DNA of 64,000 bases, from positions 4,808 through 68,807 of the forward strand of contig DRKX01000089.1 in NCBI GenBank assembly GCA_011051565.1. The letters are read 5' to 3'. A model generated the notes under the pieces. It saw nothing but the letters and a program-made list of their open reading frames with translations. It made no database searches and had not been told where the DNA came from. The stretch is from Nitrospirota bacterium (GTDB taxonomy: Bacteria > Nitrospirota > Thermodesulfovibrionia > Thermodesulfovibrionales > JdFR-85). Positions within the stretch are counted from its first letter, which is position 1. Every line of letters begins with the position of its first letter. The position numbers and the translations under genes are program-made. This document shows, piece after piece, positions 2,148 through 59,984 of the stretch.

Positions 2148-2252
2148 TCACGGCATTTATGTTAAAATGTAATTATTTCCAGTGTTTTGATTTGTGTTTG
2201 CAGGATTTCACGCATTCAGGCAGTGTGGAAGCGCGATTGCCTTTGGAGGGAT

Positions 2253-3029: not shown

Positions 3030-3676
3030 GGCAACTGCTCTTCAGGAACCTCGGTCTCAAGATACTCGCACTATGCCTCGCCGTTGTGCTCTGGTTCCTC
3101 ATTTCGGGCAGGGGGGTCTCGGAGATCACCCTCGAGGTGCCCATTGAGTACGTCAACATCCCGCCCGGCTACGAGATAGTGAAGAAGGACCGCGATACAG
3201 TGAGGGTGAGCCTCTTCGGCAGCGAGGTGGTGCTGAGGTCGATCAAGCCCGAGGACCTGAGGGTCTATGTCGACCTCAAGGACGCACAGCCTGCAGAGGG
3301 TTCCTACAGGATAAAGAAGCGCAACATAAAGGTGCCGCCGGCCCTGACCATCTCGAACGTGACCCCGCCGAGCGTGAACGTCGTGATAGAGAAGACGGTC
3401 AGGAAGGAGGTCCCGGTCCGGCCGGACATAACCGGTGAGCCTGCAGCCGGGAGGCACATAAGCGAGGTGACGATCAAGCCCGATCGGGTGGTGGTGGAAG
3501 GCCCGGAGAGTGTTCTGAGGAGGCTTACATACGTCAGGACCGAGCCCATAGACGTAACGGGTCTGGACAGTGACAGCGTGATGAAGGTGAACGTGGTATC
3601 GGATGTGACCGCTGCAAGGCTGATGACCGGAAAGGTCGATGTACATATCAAGATCAAGGAAGGTAACGAGAGATGA
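3026..3676 (+). CDS. cdaR: CdaR / YbbR-domain regulator of CdaA
   Basis: The gene has an ATGA overlap with cdaA. It has an N-terminal TM helix and repeated beta-rich YbbR-like modules (VPIEYVNIPPGYEIV..., VNVVIEKTVRKEVPV..., VTIKPDRVVVEGPESVL). It sits in the conserved cdaA-cdaR-glmM position. Confidence 0.75.
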   Translation: MRQLLFRNLGLKILALCLAVVLWFLISGRGVSEITLEVPIEYVNIPPGYEIVKKDRDTVRVSLFGSEVVLRSIKPEDLRVYVDLKDAQPAEGSYRIKKRNIKVPPALTISNVTPPSVNVVIEKTVRKEVPVRPDITGEPAAGRHISEVTIKPDRVVVEGPESVLRRLTYVRTEPIDVTGLDSDSVMKVNVVSDVTAARLMTGKVDVHIKIKEGNER

Positions 3677-29715: not shown

Positions 29716-30210
29716 ATGACCAAGAGGAGACACAAGCGTTATACAAAACGGGTCGAGACCGAATTCAGCGCTGCAGACAAGGTCTTCAAGGGCATATCAT
29801 CCGACTTCTCGGAGAAGGGGATATTCATAAGGACCAATCACGGCTTCGTCCCCGACACGGTGGTCGAGATAAGTCTGCTGCTGCCCGACGGCACCACGTC
29901 GCGGCTGAAGGGTATTGTGAGGCATACGGTGAAGAGCCAGCTCAAGATGGTGAAGAACGGCATGGGTATTGAGATCATAGAGAGTGACGACGCCTATGCG
30001 AGGTTCCTCCGGGAAGAGCTCATCGGCATGCCGCAGGACGGCCGAGACTCCGCCGGCGCACGTGATCTCCAGACTACACGGACTCCGGACGCTGAAGAAG
30101 AGGAGTACATAGTGAGGGAGTGTCGAGCCTGCGGGACGAAGAACAGGATCGCCGCCTCTAAGCTCTCCCTCGGGCCGAAGTGCGGCAGATGTGGAAGCTC
30201 CTTGACCTGA
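29716..30210 (+). CDS. PilZ-domain protein with C-terminal CxxC-x17-CxxC zinc ribbon
   Basis: The start codon directly follows the purA stop. The canonical c-di-GMP motifs are RRHKR (RxxxR) and DFSEKG (DxSxxG). The C-terminal zinc ribbon is CRACGTKNRIAASKLSLGPKCGRCG. Confidence 0.75.
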   Translation: MTKRRHKRYTKRVETEFSAADKVFKGISSDFSEKGIFIRTNHGFVPDTVVEISLLLPDGTTSRLKGIVRHTVKSQLKMVKNGMGIEIIESDDAYARFLREELIGMPQDGRDSAGARDLQTTRTPDAEEEEYIVRECRACGTKNRIAASKLSLGPKCGRCGSSLT

Positions 30211-30890
30211 TACTGCCTGCGAGGTGTCCCGCTTGCGGCAGGCCTTCGGACAGCCGTAGGCATGCACCCTTCTGCAGCGGCTGCTGGAGCTCGGTGACCC
30301 GTGCCCCGGAAGTAAAGCGGTGCACTACATGCGGTGTGGCGCTGCCCTCGGACTACTCCTTCAAGTGCCTCTCCTGCATAAAAGAGAGCCCTCACTACAG
30401 GAGGGCATACGTCTTCGGTGACTACAGCGGAACGCTGAAGGCGGCGATAAACCTCCTGAAGTTCGAAGGGCTCCGGAGACTCTCGGTCCCGCTCGGGGCC
30501 CTCCTCTGTTCCCTGCCCCTTCCCCCCGTCGACCTCATCTTGCCCGTGCCGCTCAGCAGGGAGAGGCTCGTACAGAGGGGATTCAACCAGAGCCACCTGC
30601 TCGGCCTCCGCCTTTCAAGGGGCCTCTCCGTCCCCCTCGAGCCGGCCCTGCTGATCAGGTCGAAGGATACAGTGCCGCAGAGCACCCTGTCGAGGGATGA
30701 GCGCCTGAAGAACCCCAGAGGCGCCTTCTCGGTCTCAGCATCCGCGAGGAGGAGGCTTCCGCGGCGTGTCGTCATAGTCGACGATGTGATGACGACCGGG
30801 GCCACCCTGAACGAGTGCGCGAGGGTCCTCGTACGCGAAGGGGTCGAGGAGGTCCATGCAGCCGTCCTTGCACGGACGAGGACCGAATGA
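30180..30890 (+). CDS. comF: ComF-family protein (ComFC-like phosphoribosyltransferase-fold)
   Basis: The N-terminus has Zn-finger Cys pairs (CPACG...CSGCW, CTTCG...CLSC). The PRTase motif is VVIVDDVMTTGATLNE. Confidence 0.8.
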   Translation: MRQMWKLLDLILPARCPACGRPSDSRRHAPFCSGCWSSVTRAPEVKRCTTCGVALPSDYSFKCLSCIKESPHYRRAYVFGDYSGTLKAAINLLKFEGLRRLSVPLGALLCSLPLPPVDLILPVPLSRERLVQRGFNQSHLLGLRLSRGLSVPLEPALLIRSKDTVPQSTLSRDERLKNPRGAFSVSASARRRLPRRVVIVDDVMTTGATLNECARVLVREGVEEVHAAVLARTRTE

Positions 30891-34346: not shown

Positions 34347-34376
34347 TTGACGAAAGAAGAGACAACCCTGTAAAAT
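34347..34376 (+). promoter_or_regulatory. Dedicated promoter of tRNA-Sec
   Basis: TTGACG (34347-34352), an 18-nt spacer, then TAAAAT (34371-34376). The first nucleotide of the tRNA lies 8 nt downstream of the -10. Confidence 0.55.
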
Positions 34377-34383
34377 CAAGCAT

Positions 34384-34481
34384 GGGAGCGGATGGGGCTC
34401 TGGTGTCCCCCTCGGACTTCAAATCCGGTGTTCCCTGCCAAAAGCGGGGAAGGTGGGTTCGATTCCCACACGCTCCCGCCA
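34384..34481 (+). tRNA. selC: tRNA-Sec (anticodon UCA), CCA encoded
   Basis: The 98-nt sequence is GGGAGCGG...CGCTCCCGCCA. The anticodon loop CUUCAAA carries UCA. The long variable arm has an 8-bp stem (TTCCCTGC / GCGGGGAA) with loop CAAAA. The T arm is GTGGG-TTCGATT-CCCAC (5 bp). The acceptor stem is extended, the discriminator is G, and the 3' end is CCA. Confidence 0.9.
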
Positions 34482-34799
34482 ATGAGACCCTCCAAAACAG
34501 TGGACTTCCAAAACATGCCGCTGCCGGCAGACTCACGGTGTGTCGACCGGTACAGACACGGTCTCTTAAAGTTTGTACATCTCCGTCCGATAAGTATCTC
34601 AGAGCGCCTTTCAGGGCGAGCAATTTTTGATGGTATTTCAAGGCAGGCTGTTCTATAATATTAATACCATGCCATGCATTTGCTCAACCGAGGCGGTGGA
34701 TGCGGCATGATCGGCGCCTGATGCACCGCCGGGAAGTCTCGCAGATTGGGGGCAGGAGGGTATTTTTTAGTGACTTGAAATGCCGGAGGGGGCACTTCA

Positions 34800-37280
34800 A
34801 TGCCGTCTATCAACCAGTCGAATCCTTCAGCCGGCCGGCCGTACGCGCCGGATGTCCGTGTATTTGCGCTCGACGGCCTGCCCCACGGGATGCCTCTGTC
34901 GGAGATGCCGTCCGGATGCACGGAGCATCAGATCGTGGTCGTGGGCAGGGACATGAAGGTGAGGTATCTCAATCATGCCGCAAGGGCCGCTGCAGGCATC
35001 AAGGAGGGAGACACCGGAACCTACTTCTGCTATCAAGTCACCCATCGCAGGGACACGCCGTGCGATGCAGGCGGTGAGATATGCCCGGTGAAAGAGGTCT
35101 TCAGGACGGGCAGGCCCCTCACCGTGCACCACGAGTACTTCGACGGCGAGAGAAAAGGTTCCCTTCTCGAGGTCTACGCATTTCCCATATTCAGCGAAGA
35201 CGGCGAGGTCCTGGAGGTCACGGAGTTCATCAAGGAGGTGACCAAGAGGGACTTGTCCGAGAGGACACTGCTGTCCGAGGAGCGGTTCCGCAACCTCGTG
35301 GAGTCGACTCCGGATGCGATCATCACGGCCGATTCGAACGGGATAATCGTCTCGTGCAACAGCGCCGTCAATAACATCTTCGGCTACTCCCCGGCGGAAC
35401 TGATGGACAGGCCCGTGACCGTCATCATACCGGAGAGGTTTCATGAGAAACATTCAGAGGGGATGAGGCTGGTGCGTGACGGCCGAAAGCCGATACTTGC
35501 CGGAGAGACGATGGAACTGGTTGCCCTCAAGAAGGACGGGACGGAATTCCCCGTCGAACTCTCGCTCTCTTTATGGGCATCAAAGGGGGAGGTGTACTTC
35601 ACCGCCATCATAAGGGATATCACCATGCGCAAGAACGTCGAGGCGTCGCTTATAGAGGAGAAGCAGCGTCTCGAGTCGGTCCAGAGAGAACTCGTGAAAA
35701 AGCACGAAGAACAGGGCGTCCTATTCAGACAGGTGGAGGTTGCCAAGAAGGAGTGGGAGCGTACGGCTGACTGCCTCGACGACATGATCATACTCGCCGA
35801 CAGCGAGGGCAGGATAAGGAGGTGCAACAAGAGTGTCAGGGAGTTCTCCGGACTCTCGTATGATGAACTCATCGGAAGGAAATGGGAGGACCTGCTGAGT
35901 GAGCAGGGGGTCGAGGCATACAAGCTCTACCGCCACAGCGTGGAACTGAGACACAAGTCCACAGGCAGGCATTTCGTCCTGAGGTTCTATCCTTTCAAGG
36001 CCCTGAACAGTTATGAGAGCCCGGGCATCGTCATAACCATTCACGACCTGACGGAGCTCAAAAATGCTGCAGAGGTGCTCGAGAAAAAGAACAGGGAGAT
36101 AGACGAAAACCGGCGGAAGCTCCAGACCGCCCTTGATGAGATATCCTACCTGATCCAGAGGGTTACGCACGAGAAGGACTTCAGCATCAGGTTCGCCAAC
36201 CCCCACCTGAAGAGATGCAGCAAGGAGATGAACTGTACCGAGGAAGACTGCCCGTGTCATGGAGAAGCGGCCGCGCGGTGCTGGCAGGTGGTGGGCTCGC
36301 AATGCGGCGGTGACGCCAAGGGATACTTCGCGAAGCAACACGGGGACTGTTCGCGCTGTCCCGTGTTCAAAAGCGCCACGACGGACCCCATATACCAGAT
36401 CGGCGAGCACTTCAACAACATGATGCACATACTCGAGTTGCAGAACAGGGAACTCGAGACCGCATACACAGAGCTCAAGGCAACACAGACGAAGATCCTC
36501 CAGCAGGAAAAGATGGCGTCCATCGGACAGCTTGCAGCAGGCGTTGCACACGAGATCAACAACCCCATAGGCTTTATATCGAGCAACCTCGGTACTCTCG
36601 ACAAGTACGTCAGCAAACTCACGGAGTTCATCGATGCCCAGGCGGAAATCATCGCCGCCCTCGGCTCGGAGGAGTTCGAGAGGATTCTCGGTGAAAGGCG
36701 GCGGAAGCTCAAGCTCGACTACGTCATACCGGACATAAGGGCGCTCATCGAGGAATCGCTCGACGGCGCCGACAGGGTGAGGAAGATAGTCCAGGACCTC
36801 AAGAGTTTCTCCCGTGTCGACGAGGCCGAGTACAAGCATGCGGACATAAACGAGTGCATCGAGAGCACCATAAACATAGTCTGGAACGAACTCAAGTACA
36901 AGGCGGAGCTGAAGAAGGACTATGGAGAACTGCCCCTCACGAAGTGTTTCCCCCAGCAGCTGAACCAGGTCTTCATGAACCTCCTTGTCAATGCAGCGCA
37001 TGCCATAGAGAAGCAGGGCGAGATAACCGTGAGGACGAGCCATCAGGACGGTTCCATTTTCGTTGAGATATCGGACACCGGTGTCGGGATTCCCGAGGAG
37101 AACCTCGGCAGGATATTCGATCCGTTCTTCACGACTAAGGAGATAGGCAAGGGCACCGGTTTGGGCCTGAGCATAACCTACGACATCGTGAAGAAGCACA
37201 ACGGCGAGATCACTGTCCATAGCGAGGTGGGTGAGGGGACGACGTTTACTGTGAGAATCCCCGTGATGGATGGAAGGTGA
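34800..37280 (+). CDS. Cytoplasmic multi-PAS sensor histidine kinase with a Cys-rich module (HK1)
   Basis: There are three PAS-like segments and coiled coils. A Cys-rich block lies at aa 472-523. The HisKA H-box is [21 protein letters not shown]. HATPase_c shows [16 protein letters not shown] and GTGLGLS. The RBS GGAGGGGG lies 7 nt before ATG 34800. Confidence 0.85.
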
Positions 37281-37286
37281 CGGCAT

Positions 37287-38111
37287 ATGGATACGGGTGT
37301 GAGGATACTCTGCGTGGACGACGAAAGGAACGTCCTCAGGGCCATAGAGAGGCTCTTCCTCGACGACGACTACGAGATCATCACCGCTGCATCCGGCGAC
37401 GAGGGGCTTGATGTGCTGAGAGAGGTCTCACCCGTCCAGATCGTTTTGTCAGACTACAGGATGCCGGGGATGAACGGCGTCGATTTTCTCAAGGAGGTCT
37501 GCGAGCACTGGCCCGAGACGGTCAGGATCGTGCTCTCCGGTTATGCGGACACCGCGGCCGTGGTGTCCGCAATAAACGAGGGCCGTATATACAAGTTCAT
37601 ACCGAAGCCCTGGAACGACGACGAGCTCAAGGTCACGATATCCAATGCCATAGAGCGCTACATGCTGCACGAGAGGAACGCGGAACTCGCCAGGGAACTT
37701 CAGAAGAAGAACGAGGAGCTCCAGAAGGTGAACGACAACCTCGAGAGGCTCGTTGCGGAGAGGACCTCGGAGCTGATCTTTCAGAACAGGGCGTTGACCC
37801 ATTCTCAGAACATCCTCGACGCGCTTCCGGTCGCCGTGCTCGGCATAGATTCAGACGGACTGATAGTCCAGTGCAACGAGAAGGGCGTGGAGATGTTCGG
37901 AAGCGGCGGCGCTACGATACTCGGCATGGACAGGACGGCCGTGCTCTCCGAGGAGCTGAACGGCATGATAGACGGCGCCGTCAGGGACGGGCTTCAAACC
38001 GGTGACTTCCGCATCGGGGGGGTATCGATGGTCAGATTTGCGTCCATGAGGTATCCGGACGGGCAGGAGGGAGTGGTTCTGATCTTTTTTGGCGAGGGTG
38101 ATCATGCCTGA
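37287..38111 (+). CDS. Response regulator: REC + coiled coil + PAS-like domain, no enzymatic output
   Basis: REC motifs are ILCVDDERNV, LSDYRMPGMNG and KPWNDDEL. The C-terminal PAS-like segment reads ILDALPVAVLGIDSDGLIVQCNEKGVEMFG. Confidence 0.8.
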   Translation: MDTGVRILCVDDERNVLRAIERLFLDDDYEIITAASGDEGLDVLREVSPVQIVLSDYRMPGMNGVDFLKEVCEHWPETVRIVLSGYADTAAVVSAINEGRIYKFIPKPWNDDELKVTISNAIERYMLHERNAELARELQKKNEELQKVNDNLERLVAERTSELIFQNRALTHSQNILDALPVAVLGIDSDGLIVQCNEKGVEMFGSGGATILGMDRTAVLSEELNGMIDGAVRDGLQTGDFRIGGVSMVRFASMRYPDGQEGVVLIFFGEGDHA

Positions 38112-39099
38112 CACGGTGCTGCTCGTAGATGACGAGGAGTATGTCCTCAACTCGATAGAGCGGCTGCTCGTCTGCTGTGACGGCATCAGGGTGCTGAAGG
38201 CCGCTTCTGCAGACGAGGCCCTCGGTCTCATTGCTGAGGAGGCAGTGGCCGTGATCGTATCCGACAACATGATGCCCGGCATGAAGGGCATAGAGCTCCT
38301 CACGAGGGTCAGGGGGATATCTCCCGACACGGTGAGGATACTCCTTACCGCCTATGCCGACTTTCCGACGGCCATGGAGGCGATAAACAGCGGAGAGGTC
38401 TTCAGGTTCATCGTCAAGCCCTGGGACGACGACCTCCTGGTCAGGACCGTGCAGGAGGCCGCCGGCCGCCACCATATCATCCGCTCCCTCAGGGTGAAGG
38501 ACAAGGCCATACTGCTTTCGCTCGCCCAGACGATTGAGCTCAAGGACCCCTACACGAGGGGACACTGCGAGAGGGTTGCGGCCTATGCCCTCATGATAGC
38601 GGAAGCCCTCGGCCTCCCCGAGGCCTCGAAGAAAGACATAAAATACGGCAGCTGGCTTCACGACTGCGGTAAGGTGGGCGTTCCGGAGCAGATACTCAAC
38701 AACAGCTGTGGTATCGACGAGGAGGACTTCGAGGTCATAAAGCGACATCCAGTCTGGGGGGCTGACGTGGCGCGGCAGGCCCAGATGTCAGAGGTGATCG
38801 TGAATATCATACTCTACCACCACGAGAAGTTCAACGGCACGGGCTATCCGTCCGCGATCGAGGGGGAGAGCATCCCTGTAGAGGCAAGGATAGTGGCCGT
38901 AGCCGACGTCTTCGACGCCCTGACGACCGACAGGCCTTACAGGGCCGGGCTCAGCGAGGAGGAGGCGGTCGAGATAATCGCATCCTTGAGGGGTGAGAGC
39001 CTCGATCCCGAGATAGTCAACGTCTTTCTCTCGGAGCTGAAGCGCCGTTCCGGAGGGGATCGGCTGGTTAAGGAGGCAGGTCTGCATGAACAGCACTGA
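38104..39099 (+). CDS. Response regulator with HD-GYP c-di-GMP phosphodiesterase domain (RpfG-like) 1
   Basis: REC motifs are VLLVDDEEYV, VSDNMMPGMKG and KPWDDDLL. HD-GYP motifs are HDCGKVGVP and HHEKFNGTGYP. ATG 38104 overlaps the previous stop by 8 nt. Confidence 0.85.
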   Translation: MPDTVLLVDDEEYVLNSIERLLVCCDGIRVLKAASADEALGLIAEEAVAVIVSDNMMPGMKGIELLTRVRGISPDTVRILLTAYADFPTAMEAINSGEVFRFIVKPWDDDLLVRTVQEAAGRHHIIRSLRVKDKAILLSLAQTIELKDPYTRGHCERVAAYALMIAEALGLPEASKKDIKYGSWLHDCGKVGVPEQILNNSCGIDEEDFEVIKRHPVWGADVARQAQMSEVIVNIILYHHEKFNGTGYPSAIEGESIPVEARIVAVADVFDALTTDRPYRAGLSEEEAVEIIASLRGESLDPEIVNVFLSELKRRSGGDRLVKEAGLHEQH

Positions 39100-40405
39100 G
39101 ACAGTCACGGCCGTGAAGATACTGGTGGTCGACGACGAGGAGAACATACTCCGGGCGATAAGCAGGTTGCTGATGGACGAAGACCTCGACGTCCTGACCG
39201 CCACATCCGGCGAGGAGGCGTTGAGGATACTCGGATCCAACCGGGACGTGGGAGTCATCGTCTCGGACCAGCGCATGCCCGGTCTCACCGGCGTGGACTT
39301 CCTGGAGAAGGCGAGGAGGATCACCCCTGACACTATAAGGATCATGCTGACCGGGTACGCCGACGTGAACGCTGCCGTGGACGCTATAAACAGGGGCGGG
39401 GCGTACAGGTACGTGGCCAAGCCGTGGAAGGACGAAGAGCTCGTGCAGATCATAAGGGAGGCGGCGCAGAGGTTCTTCCTGACCAGGGAGAACAAGCGGC
39501 TGTCGGAGATGCTCAAGAAGAAGAACGAGGAACTAAGGGACTGGAACTCAAAGCTCGAGCTCTACGTGCAGGAGCAGACCAAGGAGATACAGAAGAACAA
39601 CGAGGAACTGCAGTCGCTGAACGAGCGGCTGAGGAAGAATTTCCAGAACTCGATCATAGCATTCTCGGGCCTCATAGAACTGCGTGACAGTGCGGTCAGG
39701 AACCACTCGAGGAACGTCGCCGAGGTCTCGAGAAAGGCGGCGGAGTCTTTGGGGTTGCCGGCCAGGGAGGTCGACACGATCACCATTGCGTCGCTCCTTC
39801 ATGATATCGGCAAGATCGGCATACCGGACGTCCTTCTCCGCAAGGGACTCGGAGACATGAGCCCCGAGGAACTCAAGGAGTACAGGCTCCACCCCGTAAG
39901 GGGGCAGGCCGCCATCGACTCCATAGAGGACCTGAGAGAGGCCGGTACACTCATAAGGCATCACCACGAATCATACGACGGAAGCGGGTTCCCGGACGGG
40001 CTCAAGGGGAGCGGGATACCCGTAGGTTCGCGGATCATCGGCATGGTGGACGCTGTGGACAAGGCCATGGGCAGCCTCTTGAGCGACAGCGCCGTGCAGG
40101 CGGCGCTGAAGGGCGTCAAGGATGCGCTGGGCAGGAGGTTCGCCCCCGGTCTGTACAAGCATGTCAGGGCCGCGGTCGAGGATACGTACTCGAAGGTCGT
40201 GGTCGAGACGGCCGTGGTCGAGCTCGAGCTGCATCCCGACAACCTCGAGGCGGGCATGGTCATCTCTCGTGACGTCTACAGCGGCACGGGCCTGCTGCTG
40301 CTCAGCAAGGGGCTGCAGCTCAACGAGAAGAACATACAGGCGATCAGGCGTTACTACCGGATCGATCCATCCAGGAGCGGTGTCTTCGTGATGGTGAAGA
40401 GGTAG
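39086..40405 (+). CDS. Response regulator with HD-GYP-type domain 2 (GFP variant) and a C-terminal extension
   Basis: REC motifs are ILVVDDEENI, VSDQRMPGLTG and KPWKDEEL. A coiled coil follows. HD-domain motifs are HDIGKIGIPD and HHESYDGSGFPDGL. A tail of about 70 aa follows. It overlaps the previous gene by 14 nt, with RBS AAGGAGG. Confidence 0.85.
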   Translation: MNSTETVTAVKILVVDDEENILRAISRLLMDEDLDVLTATSGEEALRILGSNRDVGVIVSDQRMPGLTGVDFLEKARRITPDTIRIMLTGYADVNAAVDAINRGGAYRYVAKPWKDEELVQIIREAAQRFFLTRENKRLSEMLKKKNEELRDWNSKLELYVQEQTKEIQKNNEELQSLNERLRKNFQNSIIAFSGLIELRDSAVRNHSRNVAEVSRKAAESLGLPAREVDTITIASLLHDIGKIGIPDVLLRKGLGDMSPEELKEYRLHPVRGQAAIDSIEDLREAGTLIRHHHESYDGSGFPDGLKGSGIPVGSRIIGMVDAVDKAMGSLLSDSAVQAALKGVKDALGRRFAPGLYKHVRAAVEDTYSKVVVETAVVELELHPDNLEAGMVISRDVYSGTGLLLLSKGLQLNEKNIQAIRRYYRIDPSRSGVFVMVKR

Positions 40406-40408
40406 TCC

Positions 40409-41068
40409 ATGATCGAGTTCGACAGGGAAGAGAAGAGGATGGTGCTGAAACTCGTATTCTACGGGCCGGCCCTTTCGGGCAAGACGACCAATCTCCTGAG
40501 GCTTCACGACCTCCTTGCACGCGAGGGCCGGGGGGAGTTGATGGTGCTCGATACGAGGGACGACAGGACGATCTTCTTCGATCTCCTCCCGTTCTTTCTC
40601 GTCACCCCGGGGGGACTGAAGATAAAGTTGAAGGTCTATACGGTTCCGGGCCAGGTGAAACACGATGCAACGAGGAAGGCCGTACTGCAGAGGGCGGACG
40701 GAGTGGCCTTCATCGCTGACTCCCGGCTGTCGGAGACGGCTAACAATTATTCGAGCTTCGAGAACCTCGAAAAGAACCTCGCCTTTGTCGGGATCGACAT
40801 CGAGACCGTCCCCCTCGTGATCCAGTTCAACAAGAGGGACCTCAGCGAGATCGTCCCCGAGACCGACATAGAACGCCTGTGGCGGCCCACGGGCATACCC
40901 GTCTTCATGGCCTCGGCCCTTCAGGGCTGGGGAGTAGTGGAGACCTTCGGCAGACTGGTGGAACTCACCTACGACGCCGTAGACAGAAAATGGGGCCTGC
41001 GCGAAGGATACGGACTCGAGAGGGAGGAGTTCGTTCGGCGGCTGACTCTGAGGGAGCAGGGTCGGTGA
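40409..41068 (+). CDS. MglA-type small Ras-like GTPase
   Basis: The P-loop is GPALSGKT. Switch II is TVPGQ, with Thr in place of the canonical Asp of DxxG, which is the MglA hallmark. G4 is NKRD. The start lies 3 nt after the previous stop. Confidence 0.8.
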   Translation: MIEFDREEKRMVLKLVFYGPALSGKTTNLLRLHDLLAREGRGELMVLDTRDDRTIFFDLLPFFLVTPGGLKIKLKVYTVPGQVKHDATRKAVLQRADGVAFIADSRLSETANNYSSFENLEKNLAFVGIDIETVPLVIQFNKRDLSEIVPETDIERLWRPTGIPVFMASALQGWGVVETFGRLVELTYDAVDRKWGLREGYGLEREEFVRRLTLREQGR

Positions 41069-41104
41069 GTGGACGTTCCCGGCTGCAGGAAAGGGGATGC
41101 TCGA

Positions 41105-42421
41105 ATGAATGAAGACCGTGAGGGTGCGGGCGGTATCGAGTACGTGGTCGGGGCCGAGAAGAGACTCTGCGAGATTCTCGGGGATGAAGAGATAATGCCG
41201 ATCCTGAGGAGTGCACTCCGCGCTGGGGTGTCGAGGATCGAGGTGAGGGACTCCAAGGGCAGGGTGCTCTGGGCCTGCGGTGATCCCACTGGCGGGGGAG
41301 GCCGTGCAAGGGAGGTCGCACCGCTCTGTCTCGAGGGCGAGCCTGCCGGCAGCATCATGGTCGAGATTCCCTCAAGCGGGCGACTGCGTCTCCGTGACTT
41401 CACAGGCCTGCTGAGCGAAGTGATGAACACGATGATAACCAACAACCTGAAGAGGATGCTGACGGCCGAGATACACACCACCGTGGTCGACCAGACCCAC
41501 GAGGAACTGATCGAGACGAACAGGAGGCTGCGCGCGTCCGAGTCGAGGTACCGAGAGCTCGCAGAGAGCCTCGACAGGAAGGTCCAGGAGCGTACGGAGG
41601 AGCTGAAGAGGATTCACACGAGGCTCATCCAGCAGGAGAAGGCCGCATCCATAGGGCTGCTGGCAGCGGGTGTGGCACACGAGATAAACACCCCACTCGG
41701 GTTCATATCGAGCAATCTCAACACCCTGAAGAGATACATGTCGAGATTCACCGAGATGCTGGACTTCTACCGCCGCATAGTCGGGGAGGCCGGCGACGGT
41801 GTCGCCGAGGAGGCCGCCAAGAAGTGGAGCGATCTCAAGCTCGGCTTCGTGGTAAGAGACGTCGGAGAGCTGATCAGCCAGAGCCTCGACGGAGCCGAGA
41901 GGGTGAGGAGGATCGTCGCGGACCTCAAGGGGTTTTCCCATGTCGATGACAGCAAGGAAGACGTCGTCGACCTTAACACGGAGATAGAGAGGACCTTCAG
42001 CGTGCTCGCCCACGAGATACCCGAAGACGCCGAGATCGAGAGGGACTACGGGTCGTTGCCTGGTTTTCTCTGCGATCCGGCCCTCGTCTGCCAGGTCTTC
42101 CTCAACATCATACTGAACTCCCTGCAGGCGAAGAAAGGGGGACTCAAGCTGCACGTGAGCACGAGGTTCGCCGGCGGAGACATAACGGTTGCGTTCACGG
42201 ACAACGGGCCCGGCATCCCCGATGACATCAGAGGGAGGATATTCGAGCCGTTCTTCACCACGAAGGACGTCGGCGAGGGTACGGGGCTTGGCCTGACCGT
42301 CACACGTGACATAGTGACCGCCTACGGCGGTGACATCGAGGTCGAAAGCCGGCCGGGTGCCGGCACGACCTTTCTCGTAAGGCTTCCGGCCGAGGGGGGG
42401 CGGGATGTCGAGGTACGCTGA
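41105..42421 (+). CDS. Cytoplasmic histidine kinase (HK2) with an uncharacterised ~130-aa N-terminal domain
   Basis: The H-box is [21 protein letters not shown], paralogous to HK1. HATPase_c shows NIILNSLQA, DNGPGI and GTGLGLT. ATG 41105 has RBS AAAGGGGA 7 nt upstream. GTG 41069 is the alternative start. Confidence 0.8.
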   Translation: MNEDREGAGGIEYVVGAEKRLCEILGDEEIMPILRSALRAGVSRIEVRDSKGRVLWACGDPTGGGGRAREVAPLCLEGEPAGSIMVEIPSSGRLRLRDFTGLLSEVMNTMITNNLKRMLTAEIHTTVVDQTHEELIETNRRLRASESRYRELAESLDRKVQERTEELKRIHTRLIQQEKAASIGLLAAGVAHEINTPLGFISSNLNTLKRYMSRFTEMLDFYRRIVGEAGDGVAEEAAKKWSDLKLGFVVRDVGELISQSLDGAERVRRIVADLKGFSHVDDSKEDVVDLNTEIERTFSVLAHEIPEDAEIERDYGSLPGFLCDPALVCQVFLNIILNSLQAKKGGLKLHVSTRFAGGDITVAFTDNGPGIPDDIRGRIFEPFFTTKDVGEGTGLGLTVTRDIVTAYGGDIEVESRPGAGTTFLVRLPAEGGRDVEVR

Positions 42422-44816
42422 GCTCTTCAGGTCCATAACCCCGGGTGCGACCGCCGCGGTCGAGTCTCTGCAGGAGGGCGGAGGCCCCGCCGAGCCGTTC
42501 ACGCTCCTCTTTCTCGACGACGAGCATGAAGTGCTCAACGCCCTGAAGAGGATATTCATAGATGAGAACTACCGGATACTCACGGCCGCATCCGTTGGCG
42601 AGGCCTTGGATTTGATGGAGCACGAGAGGGTCCACCTCGTCATATCCGACTACAGGATGCCGAAGGTGACCGGCGCCGAGTTCCTCAGGGAGGTGAAGCA
42701 GAGGTGGCCTGATACGATCAGGATAATGCTCACGGGACATGCGGACATACAGTCCATAATGGGGGCGGTGAACGACGGGGCGGTCTACAAGTTCATAACG
42801 AAGCCGTGGAACGACGAGGACCTGAGGCTCACCGTCAGTCTTGCGCTCCAGCAGTACGTGCTCATACAGGAGAACCGGAAGCTAAAGGAACTGACGAGGG
42901 AGCAGCAGCGCAGGATCAGGAACTACTCCGCCCACTTCAACGAAAACCGCGGGATCATGGGTGATATACTCGTCAAGTCGGGGACGATAAGCAGGGCCGA
43001 CCTGGATACGGCCTTGAAGGAGAAGGGGGATCAGGAATTCCTGGGCGAGACACTCGTGAGGCTCGGCCTGACCACTGAATCGAAGATAGTGAGGGCACTG
43101 CAGGAGCACCTGAACCTCGATTACATAGACCTGAGGGAGGTGAACCTGAGCCCGGCCGTAGTGGGCTTCCTGCCGCGTGACCTCTGCGAGAGGAACAGGC
43201 TGATCCCGGTGAAGGTGGCGGACAAGCAGATCACGATAGCCATGGCCGATCCATCCGATATATTCAAGTGCGACAACATAGCCCTGATGACCGGTCTCAA
43301 GGTGGTGCCGCTCGTTGCAAAGAGCTCGGACATCATGTTCCACTTGGGGAGGGCATACGACGGCTCCTCTGAGGCTGCCTTTGAAATGGACGGTATCTCA
43401 GCCATAGAGCCTCTCGATGAGATCGACATCATAATTGAGGAAGAGGATCCGGAGTTCAACGTGCAGGAGCTGATAGGCTCATCAGAGGTGCCGCCGGTCA
43501 TAAGGATTGTGAATGCGATAATCTCCGAGGCGATCCGCTACAAGGCGAGTGACATACACGTGGAGCCCAAGACGAAGTATTCCGTGATACGCTACCGGAT
43601 AGACGGCATGCTCCACAACAAGATCAAGATACCCTCCGACCTCCATCCCGCGACCATATCGAGGATAAAGATACTCGCCAAGATGGACATCGCCGAGAGG
43701 CGCAAGCCCCAGGACGGCCGGATAACGGTCAAGTCAGGCACGAGGATCGTGGACATAAGGGTCTCCACGATGCCGACCATCAACGGCGAGAAGGTGGTCA
43801 TGAGGATACTCGACAAGAATGCAGCCATCAAGCGGCTGAACGAACTCGGCGTCTCGCCCGCCGACCTCGACAAGCTCTATGCCCTTATCAAGAAGCCCCA
43901 GGGCATAATCATCTCCACTGGCCCCACAGGCAGCGGGAAGACGACGATGCTCTACTCCATACTGAACGAGATGCTCCAGAGCACGAAGAACTTCGAGACC
44001 ATCGAGGACCCTGTGGAGTATTTTCTCGAGGAGGCGAGCCAGGTCTATGTGAGGGAGAAGATAGGGCTCTCCTTTGCCTCTGTACTGCGGGCCACCCTGA
44101 GGCAGGACCCCGACGTCATCCTCGTCGGAGAGATACGTGACCACGAGACCGCCGACGTGGCGTTCAAGGCCGCCCTGACAGGTCACATGGTGCTGACGAC
44201 CCTCCATACGAACAATTCTGTGGCTTCAGTGACGCGGCTTATAGACATGGGCGTCAAACCCTACCTCATAGCTTCTGCCCTCGAGGGCATACTCGCGCAG
44301 AGGCTCGTCCGGAAGGTCTGCAGGTACTGCAGGAGGGAGGCCCCGCCGGACAGGGATTTGATGAGGCTGCTCAAGATACCTCCGGACTCCCTCGGTGACA
44401 GGACGTTCAGGGGGACCGGATGCGAGAGGTGCAATCACACGGGTTATCTCGGGAGGACCGGGATATTCGAGGTCTTCATCATGAACGACGACTTCAGGCA
44501 CTTCATTAGCAGTGCGTACAAGGAGGCGGAACTCCTGAACATGGCCCGCTCAGCGGGGATGAAGACCCTCATGGAAGACGGCATAGACAAGGTGAGGCAG
44601 GGAGAGACCACGCTCGATGAACTGCTTAGGGTGATAGGAACACAGACGAGACACGAACGCACGTGCGAGGAGTGCGGGAGGCTGATCGATGCAAAGTTCC
44701 TGTTCTGTCCCTACTGCGGCAGCTTCAAGCAGAACTTCTGCAGACAGTGCCGGATGCCCCTCGAGGACGACTGGCGGTTGTGCCCGTTCTGCGGCGGCGG
44801 CAGGGTCGGCCGGTGA
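42405..44816 (+). CDS. REC - T2SSE_N/MshEN-like - PilB/GspE-family hexameric ATPase - double zinc ribbon fusion protein
   Basis: REC spans about aa 33-150 (LLFLDDEHEV, ISDYRMPKVTG, KPWNDEDL). The N-terminal GspE domain carries two 24-aa MshEN-like repeats. Walker A is GPTGSGKTT. Walker B and the Asp/His boxes are DPDVILVGEIRD and TGHMVLTTLHTN. The canonical tetra-Cys motif is CRYC...CERC. An extra C-terminal segment reads CEECG..CPYCG..CRQC..CPFCG. It overlaps HK2 by 17 nt. Confidence 0.85.
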   Translation: MSRYAELFRSITPGATAAVESLQEGGGPAEPFTLLFLDDEHEVLNALKRIFIDENYRILTAASVGEALDLMEHERVHLVISDYRMPKVTGAEFLREVKQRWPDTIRIMLTGHADIQSIMGAVNDGAVYKFITKPWNDEDLRLTVSLALQQYVLIQENRKLKELTREQQRRIRNYSAHFNENRGIMGDILVKSGTISRADLDTALKEKGDQEFLGETLVRLGLTTESKIVRALQEHLNLDYIDLREVNLSPAVVGFLPRDLCERNRLIPVKVADKQITIAMADPSDIFKCDNIALMTGLKVVPLVAKSSDIMFHLGRAYDGSSEAAFEMDGISAIEPLDEIDIIIEEEDPEFNVQELIGSSEVPPVIRIVNAIISEAIRYKASDIHVEPKTKYSVIRYRIDGMLHNKIKIPSDLHPATISRIKILAKMDIAERRKPQDGRITVKSGTRIVDIRVSTMPTINGEKVVMRILDKNAAIKRLNELGVSPADLDKLYALIKKPQGIIISTGPTGSGKTTMLYSILNEMLQSTKNFETIEDPVEYFLEEASQVYVREKIGLSFASVLRATLRQDPDVILVGEIRDHETADVAFKAALTGHMVLTTLHTNNSVASVTRLIDMGVKPYLIASALEGILAQRLVRKVCRYCRREAPPDRDLMRLLKIPPDSLGDRTFRGTGCERCNHTGYLGRTGIFEVFIMNDDFRHFISSAYKEAELLNMARSAGMKTLMEDGIDKVRQGETTLDELLRVIGTQTRHERTCEECGRLIDAKFLFCPYCGSFKQNFCRQCRMPLEDDWRLCPFCGGGRVGR

Positions 44817-44873
44817 ATACATCCTGGACAAGGGGGGCTTATGTATCCAAAACAACTCAAGGAGGACGGTTTA

Positions 44874-45431
44874 ATGGAAGACTGCATACTCCTGGTGGAT
44901 GACGAACCCAACATCATATCTTCACTCAAGAGGGTCCTCATGGACGAGCAATACACTATATTCTCGGCCAACAGCGGAGCCGAGGCCCTCGATATCCTGA
45001 AGGAACAGAGGATAAAGGTGGTGATCTCCGACGAGCGCATGCCGGGCATGTCAGGGGCTGAGTTCCTCTCGATCGTGAGGAACCGGTTTCCCGGGGTCGT
45101 CAGGATCGTCCTGACGGGTCATGCGAGCATAGAGGCTGCCATGAGTGCGGTCAACAACGGGGAGATATACAGGTTCTTCACAAAGCCTTGGAACGATGTG
45201 GAACTGAAGCTCTCGATACGCTCGGCCGTCGAGAAACACGACCTCGAGGCAGAGAACAGGAGGCTCCTCAGCATAGTGAGGACCCAGGCGCTCGAGCTGA
45301 AGCTGCTCGAGAAGCGATATCCGAACATCACGAAGATCGAGCGCGACGACGACGGAAACCTGATCCTGCCCGACATCTCGGACGAGGATCTCTCCGCGAT
45401 CGTCGCCCAGTGTGAGAGGGAGTTTACATGA
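44874..45431 (+). CDS. Stand-alone response regulator (REC plus a ~70-aa C-terminal helix-rich tail)
   Basis: The start MEDCILLVDDEPNI has RBS AAGGAGGA 7 nt upstream. ATG 44841 is the alternative. REC motifs are ISDERMPGMSG and KPWNDVEL. Confidence 0.8.
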   Translation: MEDCILLVDDEPNIISSLKRVLMDEQYTIFSANSGAEALDILKEQRIKVVISDERMPGMSGAEFLSIVRNRFPGVVRIVLTGHASIEAAMSAVNNGEIYRFFTKPWNDVELKLSIRSAVEKHDLEAENRRLLSIVRTQALELKLLEKRYPNITKIERDDDGNLILPDISDEDLSAIVAQCEREFT

Positions 45432-46291
45432 GCAAGAGCCGCAACATAGAGACGTTCGTTTCAGGGGTGAAGGACCTGCCGACCCTTCCCTCCGTCGTGC
45501 TCAAGGTCAACCAGGCACTGATGGACAGCTCGGCGACCATCGACTCGGTCAGCAGCATAGTCGAGAGGGACCCGGCCCTTACAGCCAAGGTGCTCAGGTT
45601 GGCCAACTCGAGCTACTACGGGTTTTCCTCCTCCGTGGACACCCTGTCGAGGGCCGTCACCGTCCTCGGTTTCAACACCATAAGGAGTCTTGCGACCACG
45701 GTCTCCGTCTTCAAGATATTCAAGAGGGAGCCGTCGGGCTCCTTCGACATGCATGGCCTGTGGCTTCACAGCCTCGGCTGTGCGATCGCCTCGAAGGTCC
45801 TCGTCCACGCGATGGGGACTGCACTTCGAGAGAAGGCCTTCGTTTGCGGCCTGATACACGACATAGGAAAGGTCGTCATCGCGCAGAACCTTCCTGACGA
45901 GACGGCGGAGGTCCTGAGGCGCCTCGAGGATGACGGTTCCCCGGACATGGCTGAGGTGGAAGAGGAGGTCATAGGGTTCGCCCACACCGGTGTGGGTGCG
46001 CTCATAGCCGAGAGGTGGCATTTCCCGAGGGAGCTCTCCGAGGCCATCAGGCTTCACCACAGGTCCGGAGACGATCCGGACGAGGCGCATCCGGTCTTGA
46101 CGTATGCCGTGTATGCCGGAAACCAGATTGCAAAGGAGCGCGGGCTCGGCAGGAGCCAGAACAGGAAGGTCCGTGAGGTCCAGGCGTGGGTGCGGGAGAG
46201 GCTGGGCGTGTCTGTGGAGGATCTGCCGGGGCTGCTTGAGAGGACCGAGTATGACTTCAACACTGTGGTGAACTCGTGGGACCTCGCTTGA
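45428..46291 (+). CDS. HDOD-domain protein
   Basis: It has an ATGA overlap with the previous gene. Motifs are LPTLPSVVLKVNQAL, LANSSYYGF and GLIHDIGKVVI, typical of HDOD. Confidence 0.8.
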   Translation: MSKSRNIETFVSGVKDLPTLPSVVLKVNQALMDSSATIDSVSSIVERDPALTAKVLRLANSSYYGFSSSVDTLSRAVTVLGFNTIRSLATTVSVFKIFKREPSGSFDMHGLWLHSLGCAIASKVLVHAMGTALREKAFVCGLIHDIGKVVIAQNLPDETAEVLRRLEDDGSPDMAEVEEEVIGFAHTGVGALIAERWHFPRELSEAIRLHHRSGDDPDEAHPVLTYAVYAGNQIAKERGLGRSQNRKVREVQAWVRERLGVSVEDLPGLLERTEYDFNTVVNSWDLA

Positions 46292-48247: not shown

Positions 48248-49141
48248 ATGAAGATCGAGTTCACAAAGATGCACGGTCTCGGAAACGACTTTGTCGTGAT
48301 AGACACGCTCAGGGAGTCGTCACTGGCCGGGCTGGATACGGATGAACTGTCGAGTCTCGCGGCACATCTGTGCAACAGGAGGCTCGGCATAGGTGCGGAT
48401 CAGCTTCTTCTGCTCTGCCAGTCGCACGAGGCTGATTTCAGGATGAGGATCTTCAATGCCGACGGCTCTGAGGTCGAGATGTGCGGCAACGGCATCCGCT
48501 GTCTTGCCAGGTACATCTGGGAGAGGGGGCTGAGCGACAAGGCGGTCCTCGACATCGAGACCCTTGCCGGCATAATCCGGCCCGAGGCACGAGGAGAGAT
48601 GGTGAGGGTCGACATGGGAATGCCGGAGTTCTCGCCGGAGAAGATACCGGTGGACATACGCGAGTCGGACCGCACTGTCCTTCCGGAGACGGCGGTCTTC
48701 CTGGATTACCCTCTCGAGATAGAGGGGCGAGTCTTCGATGTCACCTGCCTCTCGATGGGCAACCCTCACTGCGTGACGGTCATAGATGAGGTGGAGACCT
48801 TTCCCGTGAGTTACTACGGGCCCCTGATCGAGAACCACCGGATGTTTCCCGCCCGCACGAACGTGGAGTTCATAGAGATACTCAACGACAGGGAGATCAG
48901 GATGAGGGTCTGGGAGAGGGGCGCCGGCGAGACTATGGCCTGCGGGACCGGGGCCTCTGCGGCTGCCGTGGCGGCGTCGCTTAAGGGGTCGACGGGAAGG
49001 GACGTCACGGTCCGCCTGCTCGGCGGAGACCTCACCATCGAATGGGCGGAGGACGGACACGTGTACATGACCGGTCCGGCAGTGACCGTCTTCGACGGGG
49101 TCATCGACACGGAGATATTAGTGGGGGAAGAGATATGTTAG
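48248..49141 (+). CDS. dapF: Diaminopimelate epimerase
   Basis: Motifs are FTKMHGLGNDFVVID and the catalytic Cys contexts EMCGNG and MACGTG. Confidence 0.95.
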   Translation: MKIEFTKMHGLGNDFVVIDTLRESSLAGLDTDELSSLAAHLCNRRLGIGADQLLLLCQSHEADFRMRIFNADGSEVEMCGNGIRCLARYIWERGLSDKAVLDIETLAGIIRPEARGEMVRVDMGMPEFSPEKIPVDIRESDRTVLPETAVFLDYPLEIEGRVFDVTCLSMGNPHCVTVIDEVETFPVSYYGPLIENHRMFPARTNVEFIEILNDREIRMRVWERGAGETMACGTGASAAAVAASLKGSTGRDVTVRLLGGDLTIEWAEDGHVYMTGPAVTVFDGVIDTEILVGEEIC

Positions 49142-49434
49142 AGGAGAAGAGGCGTGTTTCGAGACAGGCTACCCGCCTGAACATCAGGTTTGCGGTGACC
49201 GAGGTGGGCGGCAGGGATGCCACGCGGGTCGAGGCCGACGGCTCGATCGTCGACATATCGGAGCAGGGCTTCTGCATGATAACGACCTATCCCTTGCAGA
49301 AGGGGCATGCAATAACCATAAGGGACAGGGGAGACGATAAGATGCCGGCCTACGGGCTTGTAAGGTGGACGGAGAAGGAGGGCTCCACGTACAGGGCCGG
49401 CCTTTATCACAGTCATCCGGCGAGCGGCATTTGA
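49135..49434 (+). CDS. Single-domain PilZ protein
   Basis: The 99-aa product carries RRVSR (RxxxR) and DISEQG (DxSxxG). ATG 49135 overlaps the dapF stop (ATGTTAG). Confidence 0.7.
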   Translation: MLEEKRRVSRQATRLNIRFAVTEVGGRDATRVEADGSIVDISEQGFCMITTYPLQKGHAITIRDRGDDKMPAYGLVRWTEKEGSTYRAGLYHSHPASGI

Positions 49435-59775: not shown

Positions 59776-59868
59776 ACGGGTTATTATACCTCTTTTTGCA
59801 GCGGATACGTATTCGATCGCAACCTGCCGAAACCAGAGTCCGCTGCTCGGGCGGAACGGCGTTTTCTG

Positions 59869-59898
59869 TTGACGATTTCAGCGCCGTAATAATACAGT
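59869..59898 (+). promoter_or_regulatory. Putative promoter of the GH57-malQ unit
   Basis: TTGACG (59869-59874), an 18-nt spacer, then TACAGT (59893-59898). Confidence 0.3.
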
Positions 59899-59984
59899 AT
59901 ACCTAAGTGATGAGATCGTTGAGTAGAGGTTCGATGCCGTACCGTCACGCAGCGGTCGGCGTAGAGAGAGGGGATCGGTGAGGG

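Follow-up and report, generated by a model that had tools for sequence, protein, structure and literature searches.

What could nine signalling genes, lying on one strand of a Nitrospirota genome and encoding two histidine kinases, five receiver (REC) domains, two HD-GYP proteins, a Ras-like GTPase, a pilus-type motor ATPase and an HDOD protein, be doing together? The block in question occupies positions 34800-46291 of a 64,000-nucleotide (nt) stretch of contig DRKX01000089.1 (assembly GCA_011051565.1, positions 4,808 to 68,807), hereafter called the window, and a sequence-only reading of this DNA had described it as a single nine-gene signalling system. Our comparison across genomes demonstrates that the greater part of the arrangement is a conserved unit of seven to eight genes, shared by dozens of anaerobes, with the HDOD gene being lineage-specific and the number of HD-GYP genes varying. 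We tentatively interpret this unit as a branched two-component system in which the GTPase would modulate the second kinase, HK2, and which would gate both an accessory pilus or secretion motor and dinucleotide hydrolysis; to this interpretation we give somewhat less than an even chance.

A search pattern derived from the REC-MshEN part of the ATPase retrieved relatives from 501 of 185,579 species genomes. The best 80 of the 501 loci were taken with 10-kb flanks, the nine window proteins were mapped onto all of their open reading frames (ORFs), and presence was counted only at loci with enough flank to judge. The gene order proved to be nearly invariant: HK1, REC-PAS, one or two REC-HD-GYP genes, the MglA-like GTPase, HK2, REC-PilB and REC. 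HK2 stood directly upstream of the REC-PilB ATPase in 70 of 73 loci, and the MglA-like gene directly upstream of HK2 in 69 of 71. REC-PAS was found in 57 of 61 loci, an HK1-type kinase in 56 of 61, and at least one REC-HD-GYP gene likewise in 56 of 61 (a canonical one in 37, a divergent one in 38, both in 19), while the REC-only gene directly followed REC-PilB in 52 of 69 and HDOD was present in 3 of 62. The sequence-only reading had staked its system on the recurrence of gene order in related genomes, and among the 80 loci the order does recur; what had to be given up is the number nine, owing to the rarity of HDOD and the fluctuating number of HD-GYP genes.

About half of the hosts belong to Nitrospirota/Thermodesulfovibrionia and about half to Desulfobacterota. 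Among those in culture are Geobacter argillaceus, Geotalea toluenoxydans, Citrifermentans bremense and Geomonas oryzae, and the cluster is also carried by Geobacter metallireducens GS-15 and Geobacter sulfurreducens YM18; the orthologue search in the latter species returned matches from strain YM18 only and none from PCA. The window proteins themselves are 97-100% identical to contigs of metagenome-assembled genomes (MAGs; GCA_015492545.1 and others), and the closest named relatives of the window are Nitrospirota MAGs. Of all cluster proteins, the GTPase and the ATPase are conserved best, with 65-77% and 63-74% identity across phyla, respectively.

One might argue that such genes are neighbours through duplication and drift and serve separate pathways. 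The paralogy of the receivers and kinases does point to local duplication, and the accessory content (HDOD, the number of HD-GYP genes, extra HK1 copies) is variable. Against this stand the four stop/start overlaps between the genes, the fact that the unique domain of HK2 and the GTPase paralogue are essentially found only together, and the same order in about 70 species of two phyla, where the genes flanking the cluster are unrelated between genomes. Recurrence on such a scale places the arrangement far beyond chance, and constancy of order between differing flanks suggests that selection or transfer acts on the cluster as a unit. Uncoupled neighbours, a reading already disfavoured, are in our opinion extremely improbable. 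The positions of the genes in the window are collected in Table 1.

Table 1. Features of the signalling cluster in the window (positions are those of the whole stretch; junctions are given as end of the gene/start of the next)
Feature	Position	Strand	Content	Junction with next gene
tRNA-SeC (selenocysteine tRNA)	34384-34481		directly upstream of cluster	
Upstream intergenic region	34482-34799	+	between tRNA-SeC and HK1 gene; promoter presumably here	
HK1	34800-37280	+	soluble; several PAS, 8-Cys module (amino acids (aa) 473-524), HisKA, HATPase_c	37280/37287, 6 nt gap
REC-PAS response regulator	37287-38111	+	Response_reg 76.7 bits; no enzymatic or DNA-binding output	38111/38104, 8 nt overlap
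Ha, REC-HD-GYP	38104-39099	+	HD_5 123.5 bits; HD, HHE, GYP, DRPYR motifs intact	39099/39086, 14 nt overlap
Hb	39086-40405	+	REC, coiled coil, divergent HD-GYP, C-terminal domain; NCBIfam NF053512	40405/40409, 3 nt gap
MglA-family small GTPase paralogue	40409-41068	+	219 aa; C-terminal tail of about 25 aa; Pfam Arf/Ras-like	41068/41069, 0 nt gap with GTG start; 36 nt with ATG 41105
HK2	41105-42421 (alternative GTG start 41069)	+	soluble; N-terminal alpha/beta domain of about 115 aa, coiled coil, HisKA, HATPase_c	42421/42405, 17 nt overlap
REC-PilB ATPase	42405-44816	+	REC-MshEN-T2SSE-double zinc ribbon (Pfam)	44816/44841, 24 nt gap; 57 nt with ATG at 44874
REC of ATPase	42507-42833			
MshEN of ATPase	42939-43370			
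ATPase domain	43491-44630			
Double zinc ribbon (DZR) of ATPase	44649-44795			
REC-only	44841-45431 (alternative start 44874)	+	Response_reg 83 bits; helical tail of about 60 aa	45431/45428, 4 nt overlap
HDOD protein	45428-46291	+	Pfam HDOD 219.8 bits (gathering score 22.9); lineage-specific accessory gene	

The ORF list and translations bear out nine ORFs on the + strand at the positions given beforehand, and the junctions agree with the four overlaps and the gaps of 3-57 nt that had been described; Pfam confirmed the domain set of all nine proteins. Gene spacing leads us to expect that the nine genes are co-transcribed and translationally coupled. Several further claims of the sequence-only reading likewise held, namely an MglA-type GTPase, a motor ATPase of the PilB/GspE type fused to a receiver, five paralogous receivers whose quoted consensus matches the sequences, and an ensemble devoid of DNA-binding outputs and of several other kinds of genes. 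Indeed, neither DNA-binding, GGDEF or Che domains nor pilin, PilC, PilMNOPQ or secretin genes were found in the cluster or in the other scanned ORFs of the window.

The kinases of the cluster resemble one another, and so do its receivers. Both kinases possess HisKA and HATPase_c with H, N and G boxes (Pfam HATPase_c 96.9 bits in HK1, which also gave PAS_4 at 108.7 bits, and 90.8 bits in HK2), their cores are 48% identical, and helix 1 of their DHp domains is near-identical. The H-box string that the sequence-only reading had quoted for the two matches the proteins; its qualification as unusual had to be dropped, since H-E-x-x-N/T is a common HisKA subtype (HEINNP in HK1; HEINN in the Burkholderia kinase NosK) and both kinases best match T2SS_HK (NF038348) or AtoS-type NCBIfam models. 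With NF038348, the scores were 349 bits for HK1 and 251 bits for HK2 against a cut-off of 450, and the name T2SS_HK suggests a related kinase clade defined by its association with type II secretion genes. Bearing the HE-x-x-N/T motif, HK1 and HK2 are probably bifunctional kinase/phosphatases.

The five receivers are 41-50% identical in pairwise comparison, have intact DD/D/T(S)/K residues, and all find their best match in the receiver of one and the same NCBIfam model. Taken together with the likeness of the kinase DHp helices, this fits a shared phosphotransfer specificity. Since, in addition, the catalytic sites are intact and the gene order is fixed, paralogy on both sides points to one branched phosphotransfer system with five outputs. 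Two of these outputs, REC-PAS and REC-only, contain no recognizable effector other than, in the former, a weak PAS match (27.9 bits, Pfam).

The two kinases differ in what precedes their cores. HK1 is the predicted variable-input kinase of the cluster: orthologues elsewhere carry dCache/HAMP/PAS sensors in place of the local sensor part. In the window, a cysteine module (C-x6-C-x4-C-x-C-x7-CW-x6-C-x15-C-x2-C, window 36216-36371) lies just ahead of the DHp helix. It recurs in 18 HK1-type ORFs, 15 of which belong to 13 other loci (L006, L012, L013, L018, L020, L022-L024, L031, L036, L040, L046 and L064) and three to near-identical copies of the window locus (L003-L005). Compared with the NCBIfam 'two-CW domain', the module remains below threshold (22.8 bits, cut-off 35), and it may represent a metal or redox sensing element. 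A second cysteine motif is located at aa 77-97 of HK1 (window 35028-35090), N-terminal to the first scored PAS.

HK2, on the contrary, begins with a domain that is confined to its own kinase family. Among 1.84 billion representative proteins, its N-terminus had 30 sequence matches only, most of which were the N-termini of kinases of about 400-470 aa, along with several short fragments; in two cases, much longer proteins were matched partially and marginally. HK2 also has an invariant EGE triplet. Its N-terminal domain is confidently modelled as alpha-beta4-alpha with a pLDDT (predicted local distance difference test) of 82, and comparison with PDB folds gave no match with E < 1e-3, with weak GAF/PAS-like similarity only and no significant Roadblock match. 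At the border between the two genes, the GTPase stop codon (41066-41068) is followed by an in-frame GTG opening the HK2 ORF (41066-41071), so that reading through this one stop codon would yield a GTPase-HK2 fusion; the MAG annotation starts HK2 at an ATG 36 nt further on.

The GTPase upstream of HK2 aligns over residues 9-190 with solved MglA structures (E 1.2e-42 with Myxococcus xanthus MglA, 5ymx; E 2.2e-40 with Thermus thermophilus MglA, 3t12). Its motifs GPALSGKTT (P-loop), DDRT (with the switch-I Arg), YTVPGQ and NKRD are at least 90% conserved in 120 homologues. The M. xanthus MglA sequence used in this motif comparison agrees with the structure-match alignment over residues 9-190. The G3 motif has Thr for Asp (TVPGQ) and keeps the catalytic Gln, and the Arg finger is located in switch I; by these features, we assign the protein as a true MglA-family member with an intrinsic Arg and a catalytic Gln. 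The curated G. metallireducens annotation likewise has an 'MglA-related GTPase'. A survey of the prokaryotic Ras superfamily describes highly conserved neighbourhoods for MglA groups 2 and 3, neither of them like the cluster, and widely varying neighbourhoods for groups 1, 4 and 5.

A true MglA homologue next to a PilB-type ATPase recalls the polarity circuit of Myxococcus, to which the sequence-only reading had appealed. Following this analogy, the GTP form of the GTPase would be the output, marking a pole and recruiting or activating REC-PilB, while the kinases and receivers would reset polarity in the manner of Frz and RomR. The catalytic Arg and Gln are in place, the GTPase and the ATPase are the two best conserved proteins of the cluster, and M. 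xanthus MglA is described as activating type IV pili and receivers as interfacing with MglA. However, apart from the list of parts, nothing specific was found in favour of this view. No Robl_LC7 domain (the GTPase-activating protein (GAP) of the MglB type) was detected by Pfam among the nine cluster proteins, RomR/RomX/SgmX-like and Che-like genes are likewise lacking, and the N-terminus of HK2 is not detectably Roadblock-like. The lack of MglB, RomR and Frz speaks against a straightforward copy of the Myxococcus circuit. Moreover, Geobacter genomes already possess a separate, highly conserved canonical mglB-mglA pair, and in one Nitrospirota locus a pair of this kind lies at a distance of 5 kb. 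We therefore hold a Myxococcus-type polarity switch to be unlikely. In that Nitrospirota locus, from a Nitrospiraceae genome (L002/L021, 1049-2145), the Roadblock (MglB-like) and MglA genes lie about 5 kb upstream of the cluster; this MglA is 40% identical to the cluster GTPase, and an SprT-like gene and a DDE transposase lie between the pair and the cluster.

The adjacency of the GTPase and HK2 allows another comparison. Conservons, or actinobacterial G-protein systems (AGPS), are defined by a histidine kinase that is paired with an MglA-family GTPase, and in our loci the GTPase and HK2 genes are near-invariably adjacent. It is conceivable, then, that HK2 controls the GTPase, or is read out by it, with the GTPase being the effector and the receivers being served by HK1 only. 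Yet the cluster has neither the CvnB (Roadblock) nor the CvnC partner, conservons have no response regulators and are confined to Actinomycetota, and the presence of five same-family receivers in the same operon, together with a DHp helix nearly identical to that of HK1, argues that HK2 uses the same receivers. A conservon-like system is, thus, very unlikely in our estimation.

The direction of control that we prefer, from the GTPase to HK2, is suggested by the nosRPK genes of Burkholderia. These encode NosR, a REC-HD-GYP protein, the accessory sensor NosP, and the soluble kinase NosK, whose N-terminal 130 aa or so are unassigned and whose H-box reads HEINN; NosP binds NosK and controls its autophosphorylation. 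In the cluster, the order of Hb (a NosR-family protein, see below), GTPase and HK2 mirrors nosR-nosP-nosK, with the GTPase at the position of NosP, and it is this likeness in gene order that leads us to propose the GTPase as an accessory input of HK2. Control of a kinase by an accessory protein also occurs within a G-protein system, as in the case of Streptomyces CvnF8/CvnA8.

The third member of the near-invariant core is the ATPase. Its T2SSE domain is complete (Pfam 438.8 bits over 6-370 of 370), and among PDB structures Geobacter PilB matches best (E 2e-143), with GspE behind it. Walker A (GPTGSGKT), IEDPVEY, DPDVILVGEIRD, TGHMVLTTLHTN and the tetracysteine motif (CRYC...CERC) are all present; the Walker A, Asp box, Walker B, His box and tetracysteine motifs are intact. 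In its receiver, D38, D39, D82, T110 and K133 are invariant in an alignment of 12 sequences. The protein scores below the curated equivalogs for PilB (TIGR02538, 561.4 against 675.65), GspE (TIGR02533, 558.5 against 630.25) and TfpB (454.8 against 850), which sets it apart as a clade of its own within the family. Geobacter carries it as a second PilB-like paralogue beside the housekeeping PilB, and TfpB provides a precedent for a second extension ATPase on one pilus machine.

Between the receiver and the motor lies MshEN. It is recognizable as a fold and family (Pfam 73.3 bits), and its canonical cyclic di-GMP (c-di-GMP) site consists of a tandem 24-residue motif, RLGxx(L/V/I)(L/V/I)xxG(L/V/I)(L/V/I)xxxxLxxxLxxQ, in which Arg and Gln are important for binding. 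The half-motifs of the window ATPase read IMG...KEK and FLG...QEH. All four critical residues are replaced in essentially all of the 120 homologues (Arg1 by V/I/A/M/Q, Gln24 by K/R, Arg29 by F/L/S/T, Gln52 by H), while the housekeeping PilB of Geobacter, in the same alignment output, keeps RLG...Q twice. Most probably, judging from these replacements, the REC-PilB family has lost canonical c-di-GMP binding and gained a receiver instead; canonical binding has likewise been lost in XpsE. As the motif is degenerate across the whole family, the fused receiver is the likely gate.

Genes for a platform or other partners of such a motor (PilC/GspF, PilM/GspL, pilins) were found neither in the cluster and the scanned ORFs of the window nor consistently near the other loci, and no pilus or secretion genes were a consistent partner of the cluster in the other loci examined. 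We have thus rejected co-travelling pilus or secretion genes as a candidate feature of the cluster, given that the scanned window ORFs include none and that the extra MshEN genes near two Geobacter loci (L019 13870-14763, - strand; L075 14092-16029, + strand) show no pattern: one encodes a 297-aa MshEN-REC protein, and the other a second MshEN-T2SSE ATPase following two proteins without Pfam domains.

The remaining outputs with a predicted activity are the two HD-GYP proteins, both of which the sequence-only reading had taken for c-di-GMP hydrolases. This holds for Ha, a predicted canonical RpfG-type c-di-GMP phosphodiesterase with the motifs WLHDCGK, HHEKFNGTGYP and DVFDALTTDRPYR (DRPY[R/K] in orthologues), which reaches only 263 bits with the NosR-family model NF053512 (cut-off 400). 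Hb, by contrast, passes this model at full length (477.2 bits, model positions 1-422), and three orthologues, found in G. metallireducens, in G. sulfurreducens YM18 and in a Geobacter sp., pass it too (scores of 478.0, 460.3 and 439.5 bits). It has GFP for GYP, as do most orthologues, and KAMG where the RxY[K/R] loop would be, and thus falls outside the RpfG-type motif definition; all metal ligands are kept, and a conserved domain of about 95 aa follows at the C-terminus. By their motifs, then, the two HD-GYP proteins are not equivalent.

In G. metallireducens, the cluster HD-GYP protein (the Hb orthologue) has RAIQ at the loop. The cluster corresponds there to about Gmet_3472-3478. Gene order and accession numbers (ABB33681, ABB33682 and ABB33683 for REC-PilB, HK2 and the MglA-like GTPase; Gmet_3469, Gmet_3471) indicate that it is most probably Gmet_3476, which an HD-GYP survey lists among the RxxQ/N proteins shifted towards cyclic GMP-AMP (cGAMP), and a preprint reports a G. 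metallireducens HD-GYP candidate that appeared cGAMP-selective in a heterologous biosensor screen. Such data might induce one to see the whole cluster as a dinucleotide turnover device of the Hno/NosP type, the output being hydrolysis of c-di-GMP and/or cGAMP, with Hb tuning Ha and with the ATPase, the GTPase and the other receivers as secondary targets or sinks. The Hno and NosP systems are indeed multi-regulator c-di-GMP networks, Hb qualifies as a NosR-family member in four genomes, and at least one HD-GYP gene accompanies most loci (56 of 61). However, five of the 61 loci lack any HD-GYP gene, the number and type of these genes vary, and the selectivity residue of Hb is not conserved, Q being found in few orthologues only. 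The cluster also has no FIST, H-NOX sensor or GGDEF gene. What is near-invariant in the cluster is the GTPase-HK2-ATPase core, not the HD-GYP genes, and this argues against a purely dinucleotide reading, which we regard as quite unlikely.

Overall, the scenario that we favour is that of a conserved, self-contained branched module with two paralogous soluble kinases as its inputs. We infer the phosphotransfer, the contact between the GTPase and HK2, the effect of phosphorylation on the ATPase and the kind of machine driven as follows. The GTPase, depending on its nucleotide state, would bind the N-terminal domain of HK2 and set the kinase/phosphatase balance of the latter, by analogy with NosP and NosK and with CvnF8 and CvnA8, and both kinases would phosphorylate the five closely paralogous receivers. 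In the hexameric PilB/GspE-family ATPase, the on/off gate would probably be receiver phosphorylation in place of c-di-GMP. As an accessory extension motor that depends on the signal, this ATPase would power a machine of the type IV pilus or type II secretion-like kind whose genes lie elsewhere. Phosphorylation would also activate the c-di-GMP phosphodiesterase Ha, as for other RpfG-family enzymes (in the RpfG-type phosphodiesterases studied, activity depends on receiver phosphorylation), whereas Hb may hydrolyse cGAMP or modulate Ha, as HnoD tunes HnoB. REC-PAS and REC-only could serve as adaptors or phosphate sinks. The net effect would be that one signal shifts cyclic-dinucleotide levels and switches a surface-appendage or secretion motor.

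Several points weigh against this scenario. In Trichlorobacter lovleyi (L083 5018-9364), a sigma-54 activator is followed by REC-PilB and then by REC, and the GTPase, HK2 and HD-GYP genes are missing; the existence of such a reduced form, REC-PilB and REC alone, means that the coupling to the GTPase and HK2 is not absolute. The proposed contact between the GTPase and HK2 derives from adjacency and analogy, the modelled N-terminal fold of HK2 resembles GAF/PAS domains weakly and nothing significantly, the likeness of HK2 to NosK is one of shared features, and the cluster encodes no MglB-type GAP. As to the motor, the ATPase lies under both the PilB and the GspE equivalog cut-offs, the degenerate MshEN motif predicts rather than proves the loss of c-di-GMP binding, and, with no platform, PilM/GspL or pilin genes accompanying the cluster, the ATPase could have a non-motor role. 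Finally, the sole experimental datum on any member is the biosensor screen of the probable G. metallireducens Hb orthologue.

In the window, the block is bordered upstream by a divergent PBP1A gene and tRNA-SeC and downstream by a convergent cold-shock gene followed by lysA-dapF-dapA, and its GC content is the same as that of the flanks. A terminator-like hairpin (34605-34618) lies between tRNA-SeC and the HK1 gene; no sigma-70-like site was found between this hairpin and position 34800, and a good one is located at 34347-34376, ahead of tRNA-SeC. A riboswitch or other known RNA upstream of the cluster was considered and discarded, as the Rfam scan returned two tRNAs only. The window that contains tRNA-SeC also contains a gene for the selenocysteine synthase SelA (8226-9617).

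Two small PilZ-domain proteins are encoded among housekeeping genes at 29716-30210 and 49042-49434, within about 5 kb on the upstream side of the cluster and about 3 kb on its downstream side. A zinc ribbon stands at the C-terminus of one, and the gene of the other overlaps dapF at its 3' end; both may be c-di-GMP receivers, and no link to the cluster was seen. The stretches 2187-5022, 5080-7386 and 30180-30890 contain an operon of cdaA (for a c-di-AMP synthase), cdaR and glmM, as well as genes for a ComEC competence channel and a ComF-like protein, so that DNA-uptake genes share the window with a PilB-like ATPase, pilus genes being absent. At the far end of the window (56329-62414), a GH57/DUF3536 gene and a gene whose 1148-aa product is alpha-glucan water dikinase-like belong to starch/glycogen-type metabolism and have no relation to the cluster.

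Each domain family in the cluster is already known, and the curated Geobacter annotation has descriptive names for the individual proteins. The sequence-only reading did not recognize the arrangement as a described system, and our search of open-access papers and preprints agrees with this: we found no functional description of the ensemble, no paper in which the cluster, the MglA-HK2 pair or the clade of REC-fused PilB proteins is treated as a system, and, for Gmet_3472-3477, the HD-GYP survey only. A review of PilB regulation from 2024 devotes no passage to MglA or to PilB fused with REC; it states that extension regulators are not evident in Geobacter and that pili are implicated in cytochrome nanowire secretion.

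If our scenario is correct, an ATPase of the type IV pilus/type II secretion family would be controlled directly by a fused phospho-receiver, and not by c-di-GMP or adaptors, and a bacterial Ras-like GTPase would be linked to a classical kinase-receiver pathway outside Actinomycetota. The cluster would then offer a tractable system for studying how small GTPases and two-component systems communicate, and in Geobacter it would be a candidate for the regulation of pilus function. Its combination of parts is widespread as well as strongly conserved, and one of the hosts, G. metallireducens GS-15, is amenable to genetics. It is tempting to go further and to suppose a new class, a Gram-negative 'G-protein two-component system', in which an MglA-family GTPase is the dedicated intracellular input of HK2 through a kinase-specific N-terminal domain and a PilB-family motor, with phosphorylation gating in place of c-di-GMP gating, is the main target. 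Geobacterales and Thermodesulfovibrionia, as anaerobes that cycle metals and sulfur, would thereby possess a motor for pili or nanowire secretion that a signal switches and that is coupled to the clearance of c-di-GMP/cGAMP. We put this forward as a possibility, and a doubtful one.

How, then, does the cluster compare with known systems? With the M. xanthus MglA/MglB/RomR-SgmX-PilB machinery it shares an MglA-family GTPase with an Arg finger and TVPGQ and, as functional neighbours of the latter, receivers and an extension ATPase of the PilB type. It differs in having no MglB, RomR/RomX, SgmX or Frz genes, in that its parts are fused and gathered in one gene cluster with classical kinases as inputs, and in that the Geobacter strains with the cluster also carry canonical mglBA. 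The ATPase resembles the c-di-GMP-gated MshE/PilB ATPases and accessory extension ATPases such as TfpB in its MshEN and T2SSE domains and its tetracysteine motif; it differs in that the c-di-GMP Arg and Gln of both half-motifs are replaced across the family, in its N-terminal receiver and C-terminal double zinc ribbon, and in scoring below the PilB, GspE and TfpB equivalog cut-offs. As in the RpfC/RpfG system, a canonical REC-HD-GYP protein, Ha, is present, of a family whose activity needs receiver phosphorylation, but in the cluster such regulators make up two of the five outputs that work in parallel, and some of its versions can dispense with them.

The closest precedents for the logic of the operon, all absent from the sequence-only reading, are NosR-NosP-NosK, the Hno network and the actinobacterial G-protein systems. 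With the conservons (CvnA-D), the cluster shares the genetic coupling of a histidine kinase to an MglA-family GTPase and kinases that are under accessory-protein control and have no classical sensor domains. The four-gene set CvnA-D was not found, however: the cluster combines kinase and GTPase with five receivers and has no CvnB or CvnC, its kinase is soluble rather than membrane-bound, and its hosts are Nitrospirota and Desulfobacterota rather than Actinomycetota. The Shewanella Hno/NosP network offers the example of one kinase serving several receivers, among them an active phosphodiesterase and a divergent HD-GYP protein. As for nosRPK, NosK and HK2 are alike in their features, both being soluble, with an unassigned N-terminus of about 130 aa and a HEINN or HEINT H-box. 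The middle gene, on the other hand, encodes an MglA-family GTPase and not a FIST-domain haem protein (no FIST domain was detected by Pfam or NCBIfam among the nine cluster proteins), and the metal ligands are all kept in Hb, in contrast to the degenerate Burkholderia NosR (HG-GTP) and HnoD. To the common plan of the nosRPK and Hno systems, the cluster adds a second kinase, further receivers and an ATPase of the PilB type with a fused REC domain.

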